64,000 nt of DNA from Candidatus Poribacteria bacterium (GTDB lineage: Bacteria > Poribacteria > WGA-4E > PCPOR2b). The position numbers were made by a program, and so were the translations under genes. Position 1 is the first letter of the stretch, and every line of letters starts with the position of its first letter. The stretch covers positions 1,824,001-1,888,000 of the forward strand of contig OZ242326.1 of assembly GCA_965208325.1 (NCBI GenBank), read 5' to 3'. Of this stretch, positions 5,233-31,660 are shown piece by piece. The notes below the pieces were generated by a model, which saw only the letters and a list, made by a program, of their open reading frames with translations, made no database searches and was not told the origin of the DNA.

Positions 5233-7851
5233 CTAAAACAACGTCCGATATAGAATCTTGACGTTACGCCCCGGCTCCGGCATCACCGATTTGATTCTAG
5301 AAAGGTGTTGACGGAATTCAGTATTGAATATATTCTCGACAGTGGCTACAAATTGATGTTGAAGTTGCCACATTGAGAACACTACCTGCAAGCCGGCGTC
5401 GTAGACGAGGTACCCGTCTGTCTTTTCTTCAAATTCGCCTAGCCGCTGCTGGTCGTCCGAATACCGCGCTGTCAAATGCAAATTTAACGGTAGGGTAACG
5501 TAGCGCAATGCCACTCGTCCGTTGAGCGGCGGGATGCGTTCGAGCGGCAACCCGCTTGCCGCCAAAGACCCTTTGACGTAACTCATGTGCGACTCTACAT
5601 GAATTCGCGGGAAAATTTCGGCGTCAATACTGATTTCGGCACCGTCGAGGATAGCGTCTTGCCCCTGGTATTGATATATCCACAGCCACCCTGCTGCGCC
5701 GCTACCCCATTCCTTTTCCCCGGTTTGGGTCGGGCTCAGATAGCCGTAAATCTGGTTGCGAAAAACGGCGAGATTGAACTTCATACGGTTGCCTGAATAG
5801 CGCAGAAATGCTTCCGTACCGAAGCCATCCTCCGAACCGAGTTCAGCGTTGCCGATTTCATATGAAAATACCGCGAGATGCGGACCGTCGGAAAAGAGTT
5901 CTTCAATTCCGGGCGTGCGGAATGTTCTCATGAACGTGGCGCCCAACCCAAGGTTTTCGTTCCATTGATAGATGCTTGAGACTGCGCCTGACGCGCCTCC
6001 GAAGTCGCGCTGCTGTACCTTTCCTGCACGTATTTCGACACCTTCAACAAACGGCTCAACCCTTTTCGCGTCGTAACGAAGCGCTGCCTGTAGTGTGAAG
6101 TGGTTGTATCGCTTCTGTTTGAAGAAGAACCCCGCCAAAGATATCTCCCGGGTGTGAGGTGTCCAGTAAAACCCACCCGTCGCATGGTCGCGATACTCGC
6201 TCCAAATTCCTGCAACTGCATCGCCGCGCAAGTGCAGCAGTGCGGTTGTGTTGTATGTCAATACACCGAACTCCACGCCGAGCGTGTTGTTGGATTCATA
6301 CTCTTGGTGTTGATAGCGCGCGTAGGTCGAGTGCAGCTTAATTTTTTCGAGAAACGATCCCTCAAACGCGTATTCCAGATTGCCCTCATACCGTTGGCGA
6401 TCGAGGTCAATGGTAACACCTTGGATGTGGCCTTCGGGCGAGCCGGGGATTCCATAGTCTGAACGGTAGCGGCCGCCGGAAATCCCGATGTGCCCCCAAT
6501 CCTTTACCACTGAAGCACCGGTTGAAAAATTGGTGTTTGATAACGACGTGTTTTCCAAAGTACCGACAGGTGTTTGAATATCGCCGGCGCGGCGGCGGTT
6601 CAGCTCCAACCGCCACGCGAGGTTACCGACCGGAATCGTTACTCCTGTTGTTCCGGTCAGCCCTGAGTTTACCGATTCACTCTGAAACGTGAAGTTCATC
6701 GTCGGCTGGTTGGGGAGAGTTTGCGGGATGGTCTCGCGCTTGACGTTGACTACGCCGCCGAGTGTGCTTGAACCGTAAAGCAGCGACGCTGGACCACGCG
6801 TGATCTCAATCTTTGCCGCGGTAGTTGGGTCAATCGCAACGGCATGGTCAGCAGAGGATGCCGATTTATCGCCTGAGCGCCCGCCGTCTTCGAGGATGAG
6901 CAGACGGTTACCGCCCATTCCCCGGACAACCGGCCGTGCTGCCGATCGCCCCATCGTGCGCTGGGCGATTCCTAGCTCTCCACTAAGGGTCTCGGCAATA
7001 GTTGCGCCCATTTGTTGATTTAGCTTCTGATCAGAGAGTTTGAAATCGGTTGTTTTCTCAAACCGAGCGAGTTCGTCATCGTCAGCCGTGACAATGATTT
7101 CACCGAGCTGGACCGTGCTAGGTTTTAATTTTACATCCAGCCTTATCGGATCCGCATTGACAGCAATTTTCTGATTTAATGTCTCATAACCAACGCACAT
7201 GAATTGCATTCCATGTGTCCCCAACACAATTTGACCAAACTGAAACAGCCCAGTTTCATCAGTTCGCGATTGGATAGTCTTCCCCGCGGCAACAAGGGTA
7301 ACCTCGACGTCCGAGATTGGATTTTTCGTCTCAGCGTCAATCACTTGTCCTGAAACGGAAACGGTGCGGGGCGCGGACAATCCGTCTACATTATGCGTCA
7401 AGAGAATGGCAAAAAGAGAGAACGTAAAAAGTTTAATTGGAGTTATTTCTTTGACCTTGTTCGACAATTTGCAGAGTTGACACATACGGCAGAGATGGCG
7501 ATTGATGAGGTGAACAACTGCTAGCAGAAGTCCGCCCATAGCTATGAAGATTACTTCGCTCCCCTCTGATGCGTGAAACCGTGCAATGTAGATGAGTGTT
7601 AATGCACCACCGAGCATTAGAAACACTCGCCATTTTCGGTGGTGCCGATAGCCCCACGTGAAACTGCCGACAGCAACTCCCACTGCGCCGACAACCAACG
7701 CCAACTCCGCTGACTCGCTGAGAATAAACCCAAGCCCAACCAGAGGCAATACGGTCATCAAGAGCGGGGCTGCCATACAGTGGACGGCACACGCAAACGA
7801 CAAGCATGCGCCTACATTGTCCACGACTGTGTGATTCAGATATCTGTTCAA
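5233..7851 (-). CDS. MerC domain fused in frame to a TonB-dependent receptor (carboxypeptidase-regulatory-like domain + ZnuD-like plug/barrel)
   Basis: aa 1-~128 are nearly identical to stand-alone MerC 29993..30391. Then a signal-peptide-like segment, VSGQVIDAETKNPI...TDETGLF domain, and a plug/barrel paralogous to 2103..4970. Confidence 0.88.
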   Translation of the reverse strand: MNRYLNHTVVDNVGACLSFACAVHCMAAPLLMTVLPLVGLGFILSESAELALVVGAVGVAVGSFTWGYRHHRKWRVFLMLGGALTLIYIARFHASEGSEVIFIAMGGLLLAVVHLINRHLCRMCQLCKLSNKVKEITPIKLFTFSLFAILLTHNVDGLSAPRTVSVSGQVIDAETKNPISDVEVTLVAAGKTIQSRTDETGLFQFGQIVLGTHGMQFMCVGYETLNQKIAVNADPIRLDVKLKPSTVQLGEIIVTADDDELARFEKTTDFKLSDQKLNQQMGATIAETLSGELGIAQRTMGRSAARPVVRGMGGNRLLILEDGGRSGDKSASSADHAVAIDPTTAAKIEITRGPASLLYGSSTLGGVVNVKRETIPQTLPNQPTMNFTFQSESVNSGLTGTTGVTIPVGNLAWRLELNRRRAGDIQTPVGTLENTSLSNTNFSTGASVVKDWGHIGISGGRYRSDYGIPGSPEGHIQGVTIDLDRQRYEGNLEYAFEGSFLEKIKLHSTYARYQHQEYESNNTLGVEFGVLTYNTTALLHLRGDAVAGIWSEYRDHATGGFYWTPHTREISLAGFFFKQKRYNHFTLQAALRYDAKRVEPFVEGVEIRAGKVQQRDFGGASGAVSSIYQWNENLGLGATFMRTFRTPGIEELFSDGPHLAVFSYEIGNAELGSEDGFGTEAFLRYSGNRMKFNLAVFRNQIYGYLSPTQTGEKEWGSGAAGWLWIYQYQGQDAILDGAEISIDAEIFPRIHVESHMSYVKGSLAASGLPLERIPPLNGRVALRYVTLPLNLHLTARYSDDQQRLGEFEEKTDGYLVYDAGLQVVFSMWQLQHQFVATVENIFNTEFRQHLSRIKSVMPEPGRNVKILYRTLF

Positions 7852-7894
7852 TTATTGGCTCCTAACGTCATACGTTACTTTTACCGGTTTCCGC

Positions 7895-7955
7895 TTTGCC
7901 GGTCCGGCATGCCAAATCCGAATTAATCGCTAGATTTGGCACGCTGACAGGCAAA
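7895..7955. other. Long intergenic stem-loop between lipoprotein gene and merC (also 30435..30495)
   Basis: TTTGCCGGTCCGGCATGCCAAATC-loop-GATTTGGCACGCTGACAGGCAAA; no long U-tract, so more likely a stabilising or processing hairpin. Confidence 0.55.
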
Positions 7956-7968
7956 CTTATGTCTTCGG

Positions 7969-8601
7969 TTACGGCGTAACCGTTACGGGAATCAAGAGCG
8001 CCGCCGTGAAATCGGGATGGTCGCCGTGCATGAGTTGGAGCTTGATTTGCGTTTGACCGGCTTTAAGCCCTTTTACCTCAAAGGTGAATTGCTCGGCAAG
8101 CTCATCGCCGTGTTCATCGTGTTCCTCATGCTCATCATGTTCCTCATGCTCATCGTCATCGTCATGCTCATCGTCATCGTCGTGATCATCATGCTCATCG
8201 TGTTCGTCGTGATCGTCGTGGTAAAGGTGTACCTCAATGATTGATGAATCATATCCGCTGAGCGCTAAAGCAAACACCTCTTCCTCGCCATGTTCGTGGT
8301 CGTGGTCGTCTTCCTCTTCCGGATTCTCAGGAAAAAATTCATGGCTGTCGTGGTCAAGGAACGCGGTCAGAACGTCGAGTTCCTCTCCGACTTTGAGCGT
8401 GATACCTCCCGAATGCTCCCCTTCAAATTGACGGTATATCTCGTTCCCGTCAACCTTGAGGACAAAACCGTCTGCATCGGCGTGAAAGGGTTCATCGTCA
8501 TGGCCATTGTCGACAATAGGATTGTCGTCTTCACCGCAAGCAGCGAAAAGTGCAACAGATATGAGTAACAACAACGTAAAACGTAAAACAGGTGTAAACA
8601 T
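7969..8601 (-). CDS. His/Asp/Glu-rich metal-binding lipoprotein, copy 1
   Basis: ATG 8601 after GGAGGA RBS (track start 8637 is probably too long); lipobox LFAAC; HDDHDEHDEH tract; C-terminal LMHGDHPDF. Confidence 0.85.
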   Translation of the reverse strand: MFTPVLRFTLLLLISVALFAACGEDDNPIVDNGHDDEPFHADADGFVLKVDGNEIYRQFEGEHSGGITLKVGEELDVLTAFLDHDSHEFFPENPEEEDDHDHEHGEEEVFALALSGYDSSIIEVHLYHDDHDEHDEHDDHDDDDEHDDDDEHEEHDEHEEHDEHGDELAEQFTFEVKGLKAGQTQIKLQLMHGDHPDFTAALLIPVTVTP

Positions 8602-8760
8602 AATTTCCTCCAGACATAGATAGACTGTATTTCCCAAGCATCACGACTGATGAAACAGTGAAAAATAGGCAGACTACTGCCGAGACTATACACAAGTCAG
8701 CCGGGAAAGACAGATAAAGATTTGGTCAATAAAGACAGCGATATGAGATAAATGAGCAGT

Positions 8761-9066
8761 TTAAACGGGGATAGTCGGCGGGGCGCGACTCCGGACGCAT
8801 TTGTCAAGAATCGTAGAAATGAAAGGTAAGGTGATTGGTCGGCGAATTGAGATGCAGATGTCGAGATTGGTGACATCAACGGGGGTGAGTTCGATACCGA
8901 CGTGGTTGGCATTGAAGAAACAGGCGGAGCAGTGTTCTGAACAGCAATCAACATGCTCATGGTCGTGCGCAAGCGAGATAAGGTTTACCGTTATCAGGTA
9001 ATAGACGATTCCAATCGCTATTGCCCAGGCCACGCTGTTTGGGTGGATTCTAATCTTCTGCAACAC
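8761..9066 (-). CDS. DUF2946/CruR-like leader peptide (TM, HxH, CxxC, C-terminal RAPP), copy 1
   Basis: Hydrophobic N-terminus, AHDHEHVDCCSEHCSAC, ends RSRAPPTIPV*; GAGGTGAGGA RBS. Confidence 0.8.
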   Translation of the reverse strand: MLQKIRIHPNSVAWAIAIGIVYYLITVNLISLAHDHEHVDCCSEHCSACFFNANHVGIELTPVDVTNLDICISIRRPITLPFISTILDKCVRSRAPPTIPV

Positions 9067-9112
9067 TCCTCACCTCATTCATACGTACGAAAATTCGCCA
9101 ACACAGGACAGT

Positions 9113-23568: not shown

Positions 23569-24876
23569 TTAGCATCTTTGTAAGCGTTCAAAGAGCTTAA
23601 GCTGCCGATCCAAACACTCAGCTTGAGGGAAATATTGTGGTTCGTAATTTCGGGTTTCGTTCCATGTAGCATAAACACAGTATTCAAAAAGCTCTTTTTT
23701 GCTATTGCGTTTCCTAACGACCTTGCTACCAATATTCGTGAATCCAAGAGATCTCAAAGAATCCTCAAGTAGCTTCTCCGTATGAACTTGCACACCGTAG
23801 AAGCTAGAGTTTCCCACAATGTATGCCAAAACTGCGCCTTTCTTCAGGCTTTTTCGCAAATTCTGTAGATGCAGGTGCATGTCATGGAAATATTTCCAAA
23901 CATAATTTGCCATTAGTAAGGCATTCTTTTTTTTCGTTTCCAAAATTTGGCAAACAACAATGTCCAATGATTTCGGGAGTTCACGTTCTTTTGATGTCCA
24001 ATCTTGAAGCCTGCTAGTTGCAACACCCCAGGTTCCGCCAATTGCCTTCCAATCCAATTCACCCGCTTCCCTAGCGGAGTCAAGAAACTTCGTCCAGTAC
24101 ATGTACGGGCGAAGTTCACGAATATAACTTATGCGGTTGGGATATGGCGGAGATGTGATAACGTATGAATATCTCACATTATTGATTGATACTGGCGCCC
24201 GTGAATCCTCAAAATGCACAGACGCAGAACCAGATATTTCATCACCAGCACTTTCGATGATTGATTTTGATATTTTTCCATACAATGCCCCAATTTGCTC
24301 AATTTTATAAGTCACTACTTCATTTTGAAACGACATGGAAACATGGTTGAATGCCGCCGAAGATGTTTCAATTATTAAGCGACAAAATGCAATCCACGCC
24401 AAATTAGCAACATGGTTTTCTTTCGGTTCTCCAAACTGATTAACAAGCGCCTCACGAAATGCAGCAAGCGCTGACAAAGTATGGCCGCACCACCACCGCG
24501 TAATATTATGTATTTCGGGTATCCAGTTGTCTCCGTTCGCAATCTTTTTGCAATCGGCAAGGACTTTAATGTTTTCTAATTTCAGCCATTCCAACTCAGC
24601 ACTTGAGTAGTTCCGGCATTTGGCATTTCCAAACCAAATGAGAAATGGGTTTATATCAAGACAATGTGCAGATAGCCCATGTTCCGCAGCGACCAATCCG
24701 CTTGTAGCTGTCCCAGAAAAAGGATCGAGAATAAACGCATCCTCGGGGACACTATCAATAATCTCCTTTACTAGCTTGACCGAATAAGCGGGCGTCAAAC
24801 GTAGCCACCCATGCCTGCCGAGTTTATTGTTGTATTTGAATGTATAGTCTGACCGTTGCTGAAATCTCTCGTTCAT
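23569..24876 (-). CDS. Type II amino-DNA methyltransferase (likely N4-cytosine, alpha motif order)
   Basis: Motif I LDPFSGTAT precedes motif IV ITSPPY; ATGA overlap with upstream gene. Confidence 0.9.
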   Translation of the reverse strand: MNERFQQRSDYTFKYNNKLGRHGWLRLTPAYSVKLVKEIIDSVPEDAFILDPFSGTATSGLVAAEHGLSAHCLDINPFLIWFGNAKCRNYSSAELEWLKLENIKVLADCKKIANGDNWIPEIHNITRWWCGHTLSALAAFREALVNQFGEPKENHVANLAWIAFCRLIIETSSAAFNHVSMSFQNEVVTYKIEQIGALYGKISKSIIESAGDEISGSASVHFEDSRAPVSINNVRYSYVITSPPYPNRISYIRELRPYMYWTKFLDSAREAGELDWKAIGGTWGVATSRLQDWTSKERELPKSLDIVVCQILETKKKNALLMANYVWKYFHDMHLHLQNLRKSLKKGAVLAYIVGNSSFYGVQVHTEKLLEDSLRSLGFTNIGSKVVRKRNSKKELFEYCVYATWNETRNYEPQYFPQAECLDRQLKLFERLQRC

Positions 24877-25676
24877 TTCTCAGCATTCCGTAGTGTGTCT
24901 AATACATCATGTATTTCTTTCTTGATTCTCGTTGTGTGATGTTTGAAGAAACCCGCTAAGTCGTACGTTAAAACTTGTTCACAGAATGCATACAAGGATA
25001 CGTTATTGTTTCCGCAAGTCGTACCGATGAGAATCCCGCAACGATTGTTACGGTATCTTAAAACGATATCAGCGTCAATTTGAGAAGAAAAAACTGCAAA
25101 CACAGGTAAGTAATTGTTTGCCCATGCGACTGTAGCGTTGTCAATGTCCGCATTTTGACGTTTAGAATCTTTGCTCTTGTAGCCCTGTCGAACTTCAAAA
25201 ACAATTCCGCTAGTGGGTTCGGAAACTTCACCCAATTCCGAGCAATACCGCTCTGTCCACTGCTTAACGTTGGTCAGTACCCGTTTATTTTGGATCTCTG
25301 AAAGTTCTAATCTGCCATCTAGAGATAACTTCTTCAATTTCCCGGAAGGTGTTTTGGCAGTGTACGACCATGTGGCGAACTCAGCATTTTTGTAACCAGT
25401 CGTATCCACCAGCACTGCGCGAAATAACCGTTCGCAGCCAATCCCAATCTGGCGGTACACAGAAGTCATCCCACCCGCAAGGCGGTGGGCGGCATACATA
25501 AGATCGGTATCAAGGCCGGTCCATGAATAGAAAGGATCTGAACTGTAAAGTGTCTTGAACTCGTTCAGAGAAAATCCTTCTTCTTTGTTCGCATGACCGA
25601 ATTTTGGTCGGTATCGTTTGCACCTCTGAATTGGGTCCAAAAATGTATCAAGGTATCGTCCTTCGTCTCTCGTCAC
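24873..25676 (-). CDS. Putative type II restriction endonuclease
   Basis: Coupled to the MTase; PD-(D/E)xK-like 'LSLDGRL...VFEVRQGYKSKDSKRQ'; low GC. Confidence 0.7.
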   Translation of the reverse strand: MTRDEGRYLDTFLDPIQRCKRYRPKFGHANKEEGFSLNEFKTLYSSDPFYSWTGLDTDLMYAAHRLAGGMTSVYRQIGIGCERLFRAVLVDTTGYKNAEFATWSYTAKTPSGKLKKLSLDGRLELSEIQNKRVLTNVKQWTERYCSELGEVSEPTSGIVFEVRQGYKSKDSKRQNADIDNATVAWANNYLPVFAVFSSQIDADIVLRYRNNRCGILIGTTCGNNNVSLYAFCEQVLTYDLAGFFKHHTTRIKKEIHDVLDTLRNAEK

Positions 25677-26185: not shown

Positions 26186-26959
26186 TTAGGATTTACGAAG
26201 TTTGAGTGAATCTGCTTTTAAACGATCGAGCTCAAGATGGTAGATGCCGACAAGTATATCGCCCTCAAACTTTTGCCCAACACGAAAGGTGCCGCGAAGC
26301 GAAATTGGCACATCTTGATAACTGCGGATTTTCTTTTTTTGCGGAACCTCTACATACACCCATTCGTTAAGGAGCGGGATTGCGCCGAAACAGCATGCCA
26401 TTTGGTCTTTGAGCAACACGAAAGTTCGAACGTTATCGAATTCACCTTCAAGCGGCAACATGAACCCTTCAATCTCAATTTTCGACCCGTTCAACGCTCT
26501 GATTTGCGGCGGAATTTCTTCGTCTAGGTTCAGCGCGGAGACGTATTCCGGATCGTCCAATCTAGCCCAGTTCGGCTCCCTGATTCGAAAGCTAGTGAGG
26601 GTGTCAAAGGTCAGTGATTCATAATCGCCCGTGCGCTTGCCGCTCCGTTGACTTTCAACTCTTGGCGGCTGGGAGTCCGGCACCGCGCCCGGCTGTAAAT
26701 CCACGCTGATCTCCGGTGTGGTGTTCACCTCCTCGCGCGGATTGGCATCGCCAGATTCTGCGACCGCCAGCGGGGCACCCTGCACCTCAAAACGTCCAGC
26801 GTTCGACGCTGATTGCTCGCTTACCTTCCTAAGGGCGCGAATCGGATGTGGTTCCGGTAACATTTGAGAAAGACCGAGCGCCAGCGCAACAACAACTACA
26901 CTCGTAATTGCAAAAGGAAGCCAAGAGCTTCGTCGTTTCTCCGTTTTAAGCTGCTTCAT
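26186..26959 (-). CDS. DUF3299 domain protein (ZrgD-like OB fold)
   Basis: LNGSKIEIEGFMLPLE...FVLLKDQMACCFGAIPLLNEWVYV; N-terminal TM. Confidence 0.8.
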   Translation of the reverse strand: MKQLKTEKRRSSWLPFAITSVVVVALALGLSQMLPEPHPIRALRKVSEQSASNAGRFEVQGAPLAVAESGDANPREEVNTTPEISVDLQPGAVPDSQPPRVESQRSGKRTGDYESLTFDTLTSFRIREPNWARLDDPEYVSALNLDEEIPPQIRALNGSKIEIEGFMLPLEGEFDNVRTFVLLKDQMACCFGAIPLLNEWVYVEVPQKKKIRSYQDVPISLRGTFRVGQKFEGDILVGIYHLELDRLKADSLKLRKS

Positions 26960-26975
26960 CGCATTCGCCTCCTAA

Positions 26976-27509
26976 CTAATGGTGATGATGTTCACCGTGC
27001 CCACCCTCGTTGCCTTCGGGAAAATCAAAATCAACGTCAGTGAAGTGCTGCCCCTTCACCGAAATTGACGTGATTTGCGCGTGAAAATCCGTCACGCCCT
27101 TGAGCACGTCGGATTGTCCCTCATATTGAGAGGTATCACCTTCGGTTTCTCCTGTTAAAACGTTTGCAGCGGCTTTGAGTTGCAAAGTAATTGACTGCCC
27201 AGATTTCAACCGATTTAATTTGAGTTCGATGGTGTTCTGCGTGAGGCGCACCGGTTTTTCCGCCTCGCTATCTAGGACATAACCAGTGAGTTTTCCGGTT
27301 GATTCTTCCAGCACAAATTCGAGGTGCGCGAACTCTTTGCCCAACACCACGAGTGCTCCACCGTGCGGCGCCGTATGATGATGGTCGGCGTGTGTTCCAT
27401 GTGTCTCACTCTGATTACCGTGGTGAGCGTCTTTTTTCTCACAACCGAATTGGACAAATGCAATTGTAAAAATTGTCATCAATGTCACGATGGTTTTTTG
27501 GAATTTCAT
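26976..27509 (-). CDS. His-rich metal-binding lipoprotein
   Basis: Lipobox QFGC; HADHHHTAPHGGALV...AHLEFV; C-terminal GHGEHHH. Confidence 0.8.
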   Translation of the reverse strand: MKFQKTIVTLMTIFTIAFVQFGCEKKDAHHGNQSETHGTHADHHHTAPHGGALVVLGKEFAHLEFVLEESTGKLTGYVLDSEAEKPVRLTQNTIELKLNRLKSGQSITLQLKAAANVLTGETEGDTSQYEGQSDVLKGVTDFHAQITSISVKGQHFTDVDFDFPEGNEGGHGEHHHH

Positions 27510-27632
27510 GATGGTTTTTCCTACTCCAAATTTGAGTTAATGGAAACGTCAAATTCTTCGTTATGATTCAGACGTTCCCACACGTTTATGTGGTATCCTT
27601 AGCATATGGATATGCGTCCAAAGGTGAACTCA

Positions 27633-27767
27633 ATGATTAAGGACTCGCCCATGGTTGAAGAAATTCGCCGCATCAGGTGTGCCCTTTCGGCGCAATTTGA
27701 CCGTGATGTGGATAAATATATTTACTACTTGACAAAGGGAACAACGGGGCAAACGGACCTCGTGTAA
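27633..27767 (+). CDS. Small 44-aa protein resembling 'DPIVEEVRRIR' partners of PIN toxins (orphan; absent from ORF track)
   Basis: AAGGTGA RBS; MIKDSPMVEEIRRIRCALSAQFDRDVDKYIYYL... Confidence 0.45.
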   Translation: MIKDSPMVEEIRRIRCALSAQFDRDVDKYIYYLTKGTTGQTDLV

Positions 27768-27945
27768 CTACGGCCGGAATCCCCACCGAATGAGACACAA
27801 GACACGTACGATAAGGGTTAGCTAATTGGCGTTATCGTCATTTGGGTTCATATTTGCACAAGGAGAGATTGACTGATTGATAATCAAGGCTAGGAAGCCT
27901 CTCCCACAAACCAATGCGTAAATGTATAATTTTTAGTTGCAATGC

Positions 27946-29199
27946 CTATAAGTTTGCCGCAACATCCGTCCGATACGCTTTGACGGCGGGCAAAACGCCC
28001 GCAACTGCCCCTAAGATTATAACACAAACTGGTGCGATGATAAACGCAGGATGAAAACTTAACAGGTCCAATACGATTCCGGTTTGTGCACGAACAATCG
28101 CCGACGCTGCCGTGAAGATTATTCCGTAAACGATGAAACCAATGACGACGCCCATTGCGGCGATAGATGCGGCTTCCAACACGATTACGGAAAAAACCGT
28201 TTTCCGACGCGCACCGAGCGACCGCAAAATGGCGAACTCACGCCGCCGTTCGTTAATCGAATTATACACGCTTGCGAGAATTGAGCCTGCCGCCACCACA
28301 ACGACAAGATAGGAAACCAGCGCCAAAATTTGATTCATCCAACCAATTTTATCAAACAGTCTCGCCATCACCGCGCCTATCGGCCATGCGAGAGTTGCCG
28401 CCTTACCCTGTTTATTTATTGTGGCGTCCATCATGAAGCCAATCTGCGGATTGCGAAACTTCAGCATAACGGCACTGACCTCTTTGTGCTCGTCGGGAAT
28501 CTCTCGTCCTGGTTCAGCCACATAATCCTCCCCACTTCCGCGCAACACATGCCCCTCCATCCGGTAAATCCCTTCAATCGGAATCCAGATGACGCGGTCA
28601 GACGGAGAATTGGTCGGTTTAAGCACACCGACGACGGTATATTGCTCGTCATGCCGCATCGACTCATCAAATACTAATCCGTGATAGGGGTTAAAGTTAT
28701 CGCCTACCTTCAAGCCTAACTTATCCGCGGTGTAGCTGCCCAAAACCGCTTCTTGCCGAGCCGGATTGAAAAAACGTCCGCCGCCTTGAGTTTGAAACCG
28801 AACGCCATCACGGTACTCAAACTCTGTGAATAACGTCCGCGTCGTGCCGACGATGCGGAATCCGTGATAGTTGTCTCCGAGTGCGTAAGGCACGGCGAGT
28901 TCGACGCGAGGGTCGTCTCTCATCGCCTGATACATCGCCCATGGTATATTGCCGGGTGAGGTTTCGAGATGAAAGACAGTGTTCAATACCAGTTGCAGCG
29001 GACTGCCGCGCGCACCGAGAACCGCATCAAAGCCGATCTGACCGCCCGTGAATGCGGCTACAGATTGCGCCTTGATGCCGATGACTGCCATGACGAGTCC
29101 GGTTCCGAGCGCTATCGACAGCGCAGCGATAAGCGTCGATAGGGCGTGTTGCCGCAGGCTGCGTCGAACGATGAATAACAAACTCATGCGCTTTTTCAT
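27946..29199 (-). CDS. ABC transporter permease, FtsX/MacB type (ZrgC-like)
   Basis: VLGARGSPLQLVLNTVFHL, SINERRREFAILRSLGA, LPAVKAYRTDVA. Confidence 0.9.
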   Translation of the reverse strand: MKKRMSLLFIVRRSLRQHALSTLIAALSIALGTGLVMAVIGIKAQSVAAFTGGQIGFDAVLGARGSPLQLVLNTVFHLETSPGNIPWAMYQAMRDDPRVELAVPYALGDNYHGFRIVGTTRTLFTEFEYRDGVRFQTQGGGRFFNPARQEAVLGSYTADKLGLKVGDNFNPYHGLVFDESMRHDEQYTVVGVLKPTNSPSDRVIWIPIEGIYRMEGHVLRGSGEDYVAEPGREIPDEHKEVSAVMLKFRNPQIGFMMDATINKQGKAATLAWPIGAVMARLFDKIGWMNQILALVSYLVVVVAAGSILASVYNSINERRREFAILRSLGARRKTVFSVIVLEAASIAAMGVVIGFIVYGIIFTAASAIVRAQTGIVLDLLSFHPAFIIAPVCVIILGAVAGVLPAVKAYRTDVAANL

Positions 29200-29317
29200 T
29201 TTTCCACGTGAATATTGTGCCGCAGGATTTTCAGTACGGTGTCACATGTTCGTGCTCAATGCGGGATTCGGATATGCACACTCGCCGGCTGATGCGGCGG
29301 GCGCATTTTTTATGCGA

Positions 29318-29980
29318 TCACGCACGATTCACATGTGCGAAATCTGTTGCCTTCTCAAACTGCTCCAATATTCCGACATCGTGGCTAACGGTGAGCAACG
29401 CGGCGTTGTTTTCATGGCAAATCTCGCGGATAAGCGCTATCGCTTCGTTAGCGCGGTGATAATCCAGATTTCCAGTCGGTTCGTCGGCAAGCACCAAGCG
29501 CGGACGGTTGGCGATAGCTCGGGCAACCGCAACACGCTGCTGTTGCCCGACGGATAATTGCGACGGCGGATATCCCATTCGATCGCCCAATCCGACCCGT
29601 TCAAGCAGGTGTTGGGCGAACTCTACATCAACGCCCTTCCCAAACATCATGCCGAGCACGACATTTTCCAATGCGGTGTAACCGTGGAGCAGATTGAAGG
29701 TCTGGAAGATGTAGCCTATATGGCTGGCGCGCAGTGAATCCCGCCCAGACTCGGAGAGGCCAGTCATCTCCTCACCATTAATGACGATCTGTCCGCTATC
29801 GGCGTGCAGAATTCCAGCGACAAGATTAAGAAACGTGGTTTTACCCGTGCCGCTGCTTCCCTTGAGCGCCGTCTGCGAACCTGCCTCCAGCTCGAAATGA
29901 GGCACATCAACGACCCGAGTCTGCGTGCCTTCAGGCGAGCAATAGGCTTTTTCGAGATTAGCGACTGTCAAGAGCGGCAT
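29318..29980 (-). CDS. ABC transporter ATP-binding protein (ZrgB/LolD-like)
   Basis: Walker [27 protein letters not shown]. Confidence 0.95.
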   Translation of the reverse strand: MPLLTVANLEKAYCSPEGTQTRVVDVPHFELEAGSQTALKGSSGTGKTTFLNLVAGILHADSGQIVINGEEMTGLSESGRDSLRASHIGYIFQTFNLLHGYTALENVVLGMMFGKGVDVEFAQHLLERVGLGDRMGYPPSQLSVGQQQRVAVARAIANRPRLVLADEPTGNLDYHRANEAIALIREICHENNAALLTVSHDVGILEQFEKATDFAHVNRA

Positions 29981-29992
29981 AACACACCGTGA

Positions 29993-30391
29993 TTAGTTGT
30001 TCGACGTTTCGCAGTGTTGACACATACGGCAGAGGCGGCGATTGATGAGGTGAACAACTGCTAGCAGAAGTCCGCCCATAGCCATGAAGATTACTTCGCT
30101 CCCCTCTGATGCGTGAAACCGTGCAATGTAGATGAGTGTTAATGCACCACCGAGCATCAGAAACACTCGCCATTTTCGGTGGTTTCTATAGCCCCATGTG
30201 AAACTGCCTACAGCAACTCCCACTGCGCCGAATACCAGCGTCAACTCCGCTGACTCGCTGAGAATAAACCCAAGCCCAACCAGCGGCAATACGGTCATCA
30301 AGAGCGGGGCTGCCATACAGTGGACGGCACACGCAAACGACAAGCATGCGCCTACATTGTCCACGACTGTGTGATTCAGATATCTGTTCAA
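29993..30391 (-). CDS. merC: MerC-family inner-membrane protein
   Basis: D.vGaclSfaCAVHC..P; four TM segments; GYRNHR; HLINRRLC. Confidence 0.8.
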   Translation of the reverse strand: MNRYLNHTVVDNVGACLSFACAVHCMAAPLLMTVLPLVGLGFILSESAELTLVFGAVGVAVGSFTWGYRNHRKWRVFLMLGGALTLIYIARFHASEGSEVIFMAMGGLLLAVVHLINRRLCRMCQHCETSNN

Positions 30392-30508
30392 TTATTGGCT
30401 CCTAACGTCATACGTTACTTTTACCGGTTTCCGCTTTGCCGGTCCGGCATGCCAAATCCGAATTAATCGCTAGATTTGGCACGCTGACAGGCAAACTTAT
30501 GTCTTCGG

Positions 30509-31150
30509 TTACGGCGTAACCGTTACGGGAATCAAGAGCGCCGCCGTGAAATCGGGATGGTCGCCGTGCATGAGTTGGAGCTTGATTTGCGTTTGACCGG
30601 CTTTAAGCCCCGCCACCTCAAAGGTGAATTGCTCGGCAAGCTCATCGCCGTGTTCATCGTGTTCCTCATGCTCATCGTCATCGTCGTGATCATCGCCCTC
30701 ATCGTGATCGTCATCATCGTCGTGATCGTCATCGTGTTCATCATGCTCACCGTGATCGTCGTGGTAAAGGTGTACCTCAATGATTGATGAATCATATCCG
30801 CTGAGCGCTAAAGCAAACACCTCTTCCTCGCCATGTTCGTGGTCGTGGTCGTGGTCGTCTTCCTCTTCCGGATTCTCAGGAAAAAATTCATGGCTGTCGT
30901 GGTCAAGGAACGCGGTCAGAACGTCGAGTTCCTCTCCGACTTTGAGCGTGATACCTCCCGTATGCGCCCCCTCAAATTGACGGTATATCTCGTTCCCGTC
31001 AACCTTGAGCACAAAACCGTCTGCATCGGCGTGAAATGGTTCATCGTCATGGCCATTGTCGACAATAGGATTGTCGTCTTCACCGCACGCGGCGAACAGT
31101 GCAACAGATACAAGTAACAACAACGTAAAACGTAAAACAGGCCTAAACAT
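30509..31150 (-). CDS. His/Asp/Glu-rich metal-binding lipoprotein, copy 2
   Basis: Paralog of 7969..8601; lipobox LFAAC; ATG 31150 after GGAGGA. Confidence 0.85.
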   Translation of the reverse strand: MFRPVLRFTLLLLVSVALFAACGEDDNPIVDNGHDDEPFHADADGFVLKVDGNEIYRQFEGAHTGGITLKVGEELDVLTAFLDHDSHEFFPENPEEEDDHDHDHEHGEEEVFALALSGYDSSIIEVHLYHDDHGEHDEHDDDHDDDDDHDEGDDHDDDDEHEEHDEHGDELAEQFTFEVAGLKAGQTQIKLQLMHGDHPDFTAALLIPVTVTP

Positions 31151-31308
31151 TATTTCCTCCAGATATAGATAGACTGTATTTCCCAAGCATCAAGACTGAC
31201 GAAACAACGTAAAACAAGCAGACTACTGCCGAGACTGTATAAAACTCAGCCGGGAAAGACAGATAAAGATTTGGTCAAAAAAACAGAGATATGAGATTAT
31301 TGAGCAAC

Positions 31309-31611
31309 TTAAACGGGGATAGTCGGCGGGGCACGACTCCGGACGCCCTTGTCAAGAATCGCAGAAATGAAAGATACGGTGATAGGTTGTTGAATTGAGA
31401 TGCAGGCAGCAAGATTGGTGACGTCAACGGCGTTGAGTTCAATACCGACGTGGTTGGCATTGAAAAAGCAGGCAGAGCAGTGTTCTGAATTGACATCAAC
31501 ATGCTCATGGTCGTGTACAAGTGCAACAAGGTTAACCGTTATCAGATAATAAACGATTCCAATCAATACCCCCCAGCGAATGGGAGTAAAATGGATTTTA
31601 ACCTTTTGCAA
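31309..31611 (-). CDS. DUF2946/CruR-like leader peptide, copy 2
   Basis: HDHEHVDVNSEHCSAC...RSRAPPTIPV*; AGGAG RBS before TTG. Confidence 0.8.
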   Translation of the reverse strand: MQKVKIHFTPIRWGVLIGIVYYLITVNLVALVHDHEHVDVNSEHCSACFFNANHVGIELNAVDVTNLAACISIQQPITVSFISAILDKGVRSRAPPTIPV

Positions 31612-31660
31612 GACTCCTTACCTCATTCAAACGTTCAAAAATTCGCCAACACAGCATTGT

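Follow-up and report, generated by a model that had tools for sequence, protein, structure and literature searches.

In-frame fusion of a MerC homolog to a TonB-dependent receptor behind a putative internal signal peptide in Poribacteria

Outer-membrane β-barrels are taught to be made as separate precursors that carry N-terminal signal peptides and are exported after translation. MerC spans the inner membrane with four transmembrane (TM) helices and has both termini in the cytoplasm, a topology reported for MerC of Tn21. A polytopic inner-membrane protein that continues through an internal signal peptide into a second, exported protein was reportedly described in about 1989-1991 by Thony-Meyer and colleagues, namely the FbcH cytochrome b/c1 precursor of Bradyrhizobium japonicum, which is said to undergo signal-peptidase-type cleavage. 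The Pseudomonas aeruginosa PA4063-PA4066 and Vibrio cholerae Zrg clusters are described as Zur-regulated and combine a MacB-type transporter, split into separate ATPase and permease, with a DUF3299 protein and a His-rich protein of the periplasm (PMC11481552; PMC8561739), with the direction of transport debated for the Pseudomonas cluster (PMC11481552). Here we describe, in a 64,000-nucleotide window from the genome of a sponge-symbiotic Candidatus Poribacteria bacterium (contig OZ242326.1, positions 1,824,001 to 1,888,000), a minus-strand gene that encodes a MerC homolog and a complete TonB-dependent receptor in one reading frame. Two proteins, each for a membrane of its own, are the probable output of this single gene.

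The open reading frame (ORF; Table 1) comprises 872 codons plus a stop and is uninterrupted from its TTG start. MerC (Pfam PF03203) matches residues 11-118 with 74.5 bits (cut-off 27.6), and the match spans positions 1-107 of the 108-position profile; a genome-wide profile scan gave 79.5 bits. Pfam also finds CarbopepD_reg_2, Plug and β-barrel domains in the same frame, which bears out the original prediction of an in-frame join. TonB-dependent receptors typically combine a plug and a 22-strand barrel with a TonB box that precedes the plug and with an aromatic residue at the C-terminus; here the heptapeptide GEIIVTA precedes the plug, which by consensus we take to be TonB-box-like, and the chain ends in ...LYRTLF. 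The MerC part carries a Cys/His motif in helix 1. Its loop 2 and its tail are basic, with 4 and 5 K/R respectively, in contrast to the acidic loops 1 and 3. Its four hydrophobic segments and this K/R distribution fit the MerC topology with a predicted cytoplasmic C-terminus. The receptor signal peptide is not N-terminal but follows 132 MerC residues, at residues 133-160.

A stand-alone MerC encoded elsewhere in the window (locus B) locates the junction precisely. It ends ...CETSNN* (TCG AAC AAC TAA), whereas the fused copy at locus A reads ...CKLSNKVK (TCG AAC AAG GTC). The two loci are highly identical over ~1.6 kb, spanning an HxxH protein, a His/Asp-rich protein and MerC, and they part at TCGAACAA, a single codon short of the former stop; the proposed break in homology at that stop codon thus holds. 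The two MerC copies of this genome differ by a synonymous divergence (dS) of 0.107 from each other versus 0.26-0.35 from their counterparts in the relative G007, which points to gene conversion between the fused and the stand-alone MerC. Such conversion would be the reason that homology extends right up to the stop codon.

The source genome is a single 4.7-Mb contig. Junction position 7457 is bridged without gaps by contigs from four of four public runs, which come from three studies, and the check suggested for a stop codon or frameshift at the junction revealed neither. The four bridging contigs show 0, 0, 53 and 48 base differences, the latter two values (48 and 53) over ~610 and ~830 bases, and two of the contigs come from strains ~6-8% diverged. 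In every run, a further contig splits off at 7457 into the sequence of locus B. The observed MerC-receptor fusion is confirmed as a real gene. Inside MerC, a compensated pair of indels, an extra A behind 7655 and the loss of one base at 7660, occurs in a single contig of run X6 at about half depth; this is probably a strain or paralog variant.

Fused relatives were found in databases and in genomes of the phylum (G000, this genome; G0nn, species genomes of relatives; P000n, database proteins; g1, g3 and g7, genera). All five database proteins with a MerC part in a long protein are MerC-receptor fusions, so the proposed search in relatives was productive. Four are full-length (864-872 residues) and 60-90% identical over the first 165 residues, and the fifth, P0006 (786 residues), lies on a 4.4-kb contig, starts inside MerC and has no precomputed MerC Pfam label. 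Among 29 species genomes of the family, MerC lies in a long frame only in G000 (872 residues), G007 (864 residues, genus g1) and G002 (876 residues, genus g3), while 16 others have a stand-alone MerC of 135-147 residues. Across 176 species genomes of the phylum Poribacteria, MerC is present in 105 and fused in these same three. A scan of genome contigs returned a fused gene at one of 15 loci (G007 only). The frame is kept over three junction lengths (872, 864 and 865/876 residues).

The fusion is rare. Among 1.84 billion representative proteins, the best 150 of 2257 MerC relatives are all at most 394 residues long; this length limit and the three of 176 genomes argue against a widespread fusion, though fused receptors may be hidden in receptor clusters. 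The three longest of these 150 join MerC to an ABC ATPase (P0016, P0021) or to a CDF transporter (P0092), and none carries a receptor. For the ATPase parts of P0016 and P0021, the best NCBIfam model is AztA, below its cut-off; they are joined at the MerC C-terminus, as is the CDF part of P0092. Because C-terminal fusions to ABC ATPase domains need that orientation, they argue for a cytoplasmic MerC C-terminus, from which the next segment would pass through the membrane in the in-to-out direction that a signal peptide requires.

That next segment resembles a signal peptide in its build. Residues 134-160 read KEITPIK-LFTFSLFAILLT-HNVDGLSA, and across the fused sequences and their relatives the segment comprises a basic n-part, a 12-residue core and V-D-G, A-D-A or S-F-A at positions -3 to -1. 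A core of 12 residues has the length of a signal peptide rather than that of a membrane anchor. The motif V/A-D-G/A stands five residues past the core in all genus-g1 sequences and S-F-A in the others, both of which the -3/-1 rule marks as candidate signal peptidase I sites. The segment shares homology with the signal peptides found at the N-termini of orthologs that are not fused: the G003 receptor begins MKRLIFCLFTILLTHNVDGVSLS|RPVSVSGQV behind a Shine-Dalgarno-like AGAGG, and the G005 receptor begins MVQSFRQDRNEITQTRLLIFSLFAILLTHNVDGVSQS. Judged by this homology, the internal segment is the receptor's own original signal peptide, displaced from the N-terminus.

The frame is open in G000, G007 and G002, each with one ORF, no stop and no shared internal start. 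In G007 the stretch from MerC helix 4 to the hydrophobic core is free of ATG, GTG and TTG. In this genome no AGGAG-like motif precedes the internal TTG, whereas MerC and the His-rich gene do have such motifs. With no stop codon at the end of the fused MerC, any ribosome that initiates there must produce the fusion. Genes for signal peptidase I, BamA and TonB are present in the genome, which also has 13 Plug-domain matches.

MerC and receptor halves are both under purifying selection. The ratio of nonsynonymous to synonymous substitution rates (dN/dS) for the MerC part is 0.19 between G000 and G007, against 0.14 for the stand-alone MerC pair; it is 0.20 between the fused MerC of G007 and its own stand-alone copy and 0.15-0.18 between the fused MerC of G002 and g7 stand-alone MerC. 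For the receptor part the values are 0.11-0.17 (0.11 for G000 versus G007, at a dS of 0.27), and this part is intact in all six fused sequences. In G002 the fused MerC is the only MerC, and the ABC module of that genome lacks one.

Unfused operons of genus g7 (e.g. G022) indicate how the fusion came about. Their order is HxxH, His-rich, MerC, ABC ATPase, FtsX/MacB permease, a His-rich 177-residue protein (His-rich 177), two DUF3299 genes, HxxH and receptor. Strand and gene order agree with those found here, and MerC is 64-68% and the receptor 71-75% identical. In g7, MerC stops after 132-141 codons and the receptor lies ~5.5 kb downstream with its own start and a homologous signal peptide, whereas at locus A all genes between MerC and the receptor are gone and MerC reads into the receptor signal peptide. 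Locus B of this genome keeps MerC, ATPase, permease, His-rich 177 and DUF3299. This comparison indicates that the fusion arose by deletion within a zinc-type operon; deletions removed both the intervening genes and the receptor's start codon. In G006 (genus g1), a MerC with an internal deletion and a stop is followed by ATPase codons 22-66 (Walker A) in frame with the receptor signal peptide, a locus that preserves an intermediate state. The G007 junction retains CGA ATT GTT, which matches the ATPase-derived CGC ATT GTT of G006, and the junction of this genome retains GTC only.

The same signal peptide has also acquired other upstream sequences. A clean ~2-kb deletion in G005 leaves the receptor behind an intergenic ATG. 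In G024 (837-residue frame, L036) the signal peptide is in frame with the N-terminal half of the His-rich protein, whose lipobox Cys has become Tyr, and in most g7 genomes (e.g. L069, G022) it stands behind the ribosome-binding site, ATG and 16 codons of the His-rich protein. The locus family is thus a natural experiment in which one signal peptide works in many contexts, behind at least five different upstream sequences.

The fusion arose at least twice independently, in genera g1 and g3, because the MerC of G002 is nearest to g7, its receptor falls outside the g1 clade and its junction is distinct. MerC of G002 is 88% identical in amino acids to g7 stand-alone MerC (dS 0.37), versus a dS of 1.3-1.6 to the g1 fused copies and 1.1-1.4 to the g1 stand-alone copies. 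The receptor tree, a quick search with long branches, gives (G005,(G006,(G000,G007))) with supports of 99, 80 and 100, and places the G002 receptor outside a 96%-supported clade of g1, g7 and G003a receptors. At the G002 junction, CKTS|KWLWCFLF..., MerC meets residue 2 of a g7-type signal peptide. The original prediction had allowed for a recent accidental fusion; the deletion inside an operon agrees with that option, but retention in several species of two genera shows that it is not the accident of one genome.

Our preferred reading of this gene, with a probability of about 0.6, is a precursor whose translation starts at MerC and which signal peptidase I then cleaves. Translation would begin at the MerC start codon and give one precursor, whose four MerC helices would enter the inner membrane with both ends cytoplasmic. 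The former N-terminal signal peptide of the receptor, now internal, would span the membrane in-to-out and set off Sec-dependent export of the receptor part, 710 residues long. Cleavage by signal peptidase I would fall past the short c-region, here most likely at VDG|LSAPR. The cut would free a normal mature TonB-dependent receptor for assembly by the β-barrel assembly machinery (BAM), and a five-helix MerC would stay in the inner membrane. Of the three options in the original prediction, the polyprotein agrees best with the MerC topology, the receptor's own signal peptide, the conservation of and selection on both halves and the lack of an ATG, GTG or TTG internal start in G007, with cleavage and a 1:1 yield as its predicted consequences.

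Several observations weigh against this reading. The most obvious cleavage site here, LSA|P, has Pro at +1, which blocks signal peptidase I; for this reason the cut is placed at VDG|L, a site predicted from general signal peptidase rules. The loss of the CxxCxxC tail, kept in the stand-alone MerC of relatives and gone from the G007/P0006 junction type, is a hint that full function may not be required of the fused MerC. Gene conversion with the stand-alone MerC, as suggested by the dS of 0.107, could carry over the signal of selection. In-frame partners of this signal peptide also include an ATPase fragment (G006), His-rich pieces (G024 and most g7) and an intergenic ATG (G005), so that the join to MerC may be just one result that a locus prone to deletions has tolerated, and not an adaptation for 1:1 synthesis. 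The fusion occurs in only three of 176 genomes, and the zinc assignment leans on below-cut-off matches and gene neighbourhood.

In a rival reading, the MerC part is a tolerated leader that supplies promoter, ribosome-binding site, start codon and membrane targeting, as a neutral by-product of deletion, with MerC function irrelevant or provided by the stand-alone copy. The alternative contexts of the signal peptide in relatives, the retention of a stand-alone MerC in this genome and in G007, the missing CxxCxxC tail of G007 and P0006 and the rarity of the fusion are all consistent with it. We nevertheless regard it as unlikely, since the fused MerC evolves with a dN/dS of 0.15-0.20, like stand-alone MerC, and the G007 pair gives 0.20 where ~0.5 or more would be expected under neutrality. 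G002, moreover, has no other MerC to fall back on, either elsewhere or in its ABC module.

Separate translation, in which most of the receptor would initiate internally (here at TTG codon 129 or ATG codon 123, in P0002 at an ATG) and little of the read-through fusion would be made, is improbable. The in-frame TTG129 would yield MSNKVKEITPIKLFTFSLFAILLTHNVDGLSA, an ordinary-looking signal peptide, and P0002 has Met at this position, so that the internal start raised by the original prediction may operate, but only in some members. However, P0003 has Ser there, the corresponding interval of G007 offers no ATG, GTG or TTG, and no Shine-Dalgarno-like motif stands upstream; on the same strand, no promoter-like site was found within MerC, in what is a weak test. 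An internal start could not halt the ribosomes that initiate at MerC, all of which read into the receptor. A scan for promoters and terminators gave six matches versus 7.3 expected, which is not above chance.

Still less probable is a dead-end product that remains uncleaved and anchored in the inner membrane with its barrel unassembled, from a decaying gene whose work is done by the downstream paralog. A second receptor gene with its own start does lie directly downstream, and neighbouring genes are decaying in G005 and G006. The receptor part is, however, intact in six fused sequences and conserved at a dN/dS of 0.11, and the signal segment keeps a core of signal-peptide length and small residues at -3/-1. 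An assembly or sequencing error, such as a lost stop codon or a frameshift, is ruled out by the gap-free bridging contigs, which include two diverged strains, and by independent assemblies that are also fused, leaving it a negligible probability.

Table 1. Coordinates of the fused gene, its parts and the neighbouring genes in the window
Feature	Position	Strand	Details
Fused ORF	5233..7851	-	order MerC, tail, putative internal signal peptide, TonB-dependent receptor
AGGAG Shine-Dalgarno-like motif	7859..7863	-	8 nucleotides 5' of the TTG of the fused ORF; same motif before stand-alone MerC
MerC-homologous part	7456..7851	-	residues 1-132; four hydrophobic segments
Cys-x2-Cys-x2-Cys motif CRMCQLC	7471..7491	-	residues 121-127, predicted cytoplasmic MerC tail
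Junction SNKVK	7450..7464	-	residues 130-134; homology to stand-alone MerC ends here, at its stop-codon site
Internal signal-peptide-like segment	7372..7455	-	residues 133-160
Basic n-part of signal segment	7432-7455	-	
Hydrophobic core LFTFSLFAILLT of signal segment	7396-7431	-	12 residues
c-part HNVDGLSA of signal segment	7372-7395	-	proposed cut after VDG (G157, nucleotides 7381-7383)
CarbopepD_reg_2	7090..7356	-	residues 166-254, Pfam; first domain of predicted mature receptor
TonB-box-like GEIIVTA	7084..7104	-	residues 250-256, before plug
Plug	6751..7038	-	residues 272-367, Pfam 59.5 bits, over cut-off
TonB-dependent receptor β-barrel	5236..6531	-	Pfam residues 441-823, 95.9 bits, over cut-off; runs to C-terminal Phe 872
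Second TonB receptor, 955 residues	2103..4970	-	directly downstream of fused gene; plug and barrel 69% identical to those of the fused receptor
His/Asp-rich protein	7969..8601	-	lipoprotein-like signal MFTPVL...LFAAC; upstream module gene; GGAGGAAATT before ATG
HxxH protein, 101 residues	8761..9066	-	one TM helix; motif HDHEHVDCCSEHCSAC; opens module
Stand-alone MerC, 132 residues	29993..30391	-	93% identical to fused MerC part
Duplicate His/Asp-rich and HxxH genes	30509..31611	-	upstream of stand-alone MerC
Genes after stand-alone MerC (locus B)	26186..29980	-	
ABC ATPase (ABC_tran)	29318..29980	-	
MacB_PCD/FtsX permease	27946..29199	-	
His-rich 177-residue protein	26976..27509	-	no family match
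DUF3299 protein	26186..26959	-	

The gene module upstream of MerC is present twice, as a segmental duplication of ~7460-9100 versus ~29996-31650 with a His/Asp tract of unequal length between the copies. Each module starts with a 101-residue protein (8761..9066 and 31309..31611, both on the minus strand) with a single hydrophobic helix and the motif HDHEHVDCCSEHCSAC, dense in His and Cys; this protein has no family match, yet is conserved across the family with 43-84% identity. The second receptor carries a ~330-residue N-terminal repeat domain in place of CarbopepD_reg, which neither Pfam nor NCBIfam matched and which is therefore not assigned to a named repeat family. The quick tree, with its long branches, pairs this receptor with the fused receptor of G002. 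Restriction-modification-like genes with SPPY-type methylase motifs (23569..25676, minus strand) come directly after locus B; in G002 such genes separate the ATPase gene of the metal cluster from its permease gene (L068 6860-11709). The cluster is decaying in G005 (L021/L071), where MerC is frameshifted and ATPase and permease are truncated, and in G006 (L022/L070), where MerC has an in-frame internal deletion of helices 2-3 and the permease was not found with the query used.

A conserved, selected gene thus places a whole TonB-dependent receptor behind four predicted inner-membrane helices, and at least one genome offers no ATG, GTG or TTG as an alternative start. If the precursor is cut as proposed, natural bacterial proteins would carry internal signals at which signal peptidase I releases barrels, co-translational targeting of the membrane-protein type would be tolerated by barrel precursors, and gene fusion could couple both membrane steps of a nutrient uptake route. 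A broader view is tentative and in our judgement doubtful: that outer-membrane β-barrels are naturally made as the C-terminal part of a polytopic inner-membrane protein, targeted co-translationally and released by signal peptidase I at an internal signal, and that selection twice favoured welding the MerC and TonB-receptor legs of one metal-uptake route, giving obligate 1:1 synthesis at the same membrane site. In a literature search, neither fusions of MerC to receptors nor TonB receptors with an internal signal peptide turned up; an internal BamD signal (PMC13067283) is unrelated.

Among described systems, the zinc receptor ZnuD (NF038289) scores highest of the NCBIfam models against the two TonB receptors of the window, with 190.7 and 184.5 bits, but the equivalog cut-off of 950 is not reached. 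The gene context is of a similar metal type; both receptors score far too low to be equivalogs of ZnuD, and the fused one has an N-terminal CarbopepD_reg domain. Locus B shares with the PA4063-PA4066 and Zrg clusters a domain set of separate ATPase, MacB_PCD/FtsX permease, His-rich protein and DUF3299; unlike here, no MerC or fused receptor is reported for those clusters. A zinc-type role in divalent-metal acquisition is suggested because ZnuD is the best model, this domain set recurs and MerC is fused to AztA-like ATPases and to a CDF transporter.

MerC of mer operons is matched here in family, in four hydrophobic helices and in the helix-1 Cys/His motif. None of the neighbouring genes examined is a mer gene. 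Unlike in mer operons, MerC here and elsewhere goes with zinc-type transport parts, namely a ZnuD-like receptor, AztA-like ATPase fusions and a CDF fusion, data that link MerC-like proteins with zinc-type metal acquisition rather than mercury resistance. The closest precedent is FbcH, in which one ORF reportedly encodes an inner-membrane part, an internal signal peptide and an exported part, as here. Both FbcH products are said to stay at the inner membrane in one complex, whereas the second product here would be a barrel that, once freed by the proposed cleavage, needs periplasmic chaperones and BAM.

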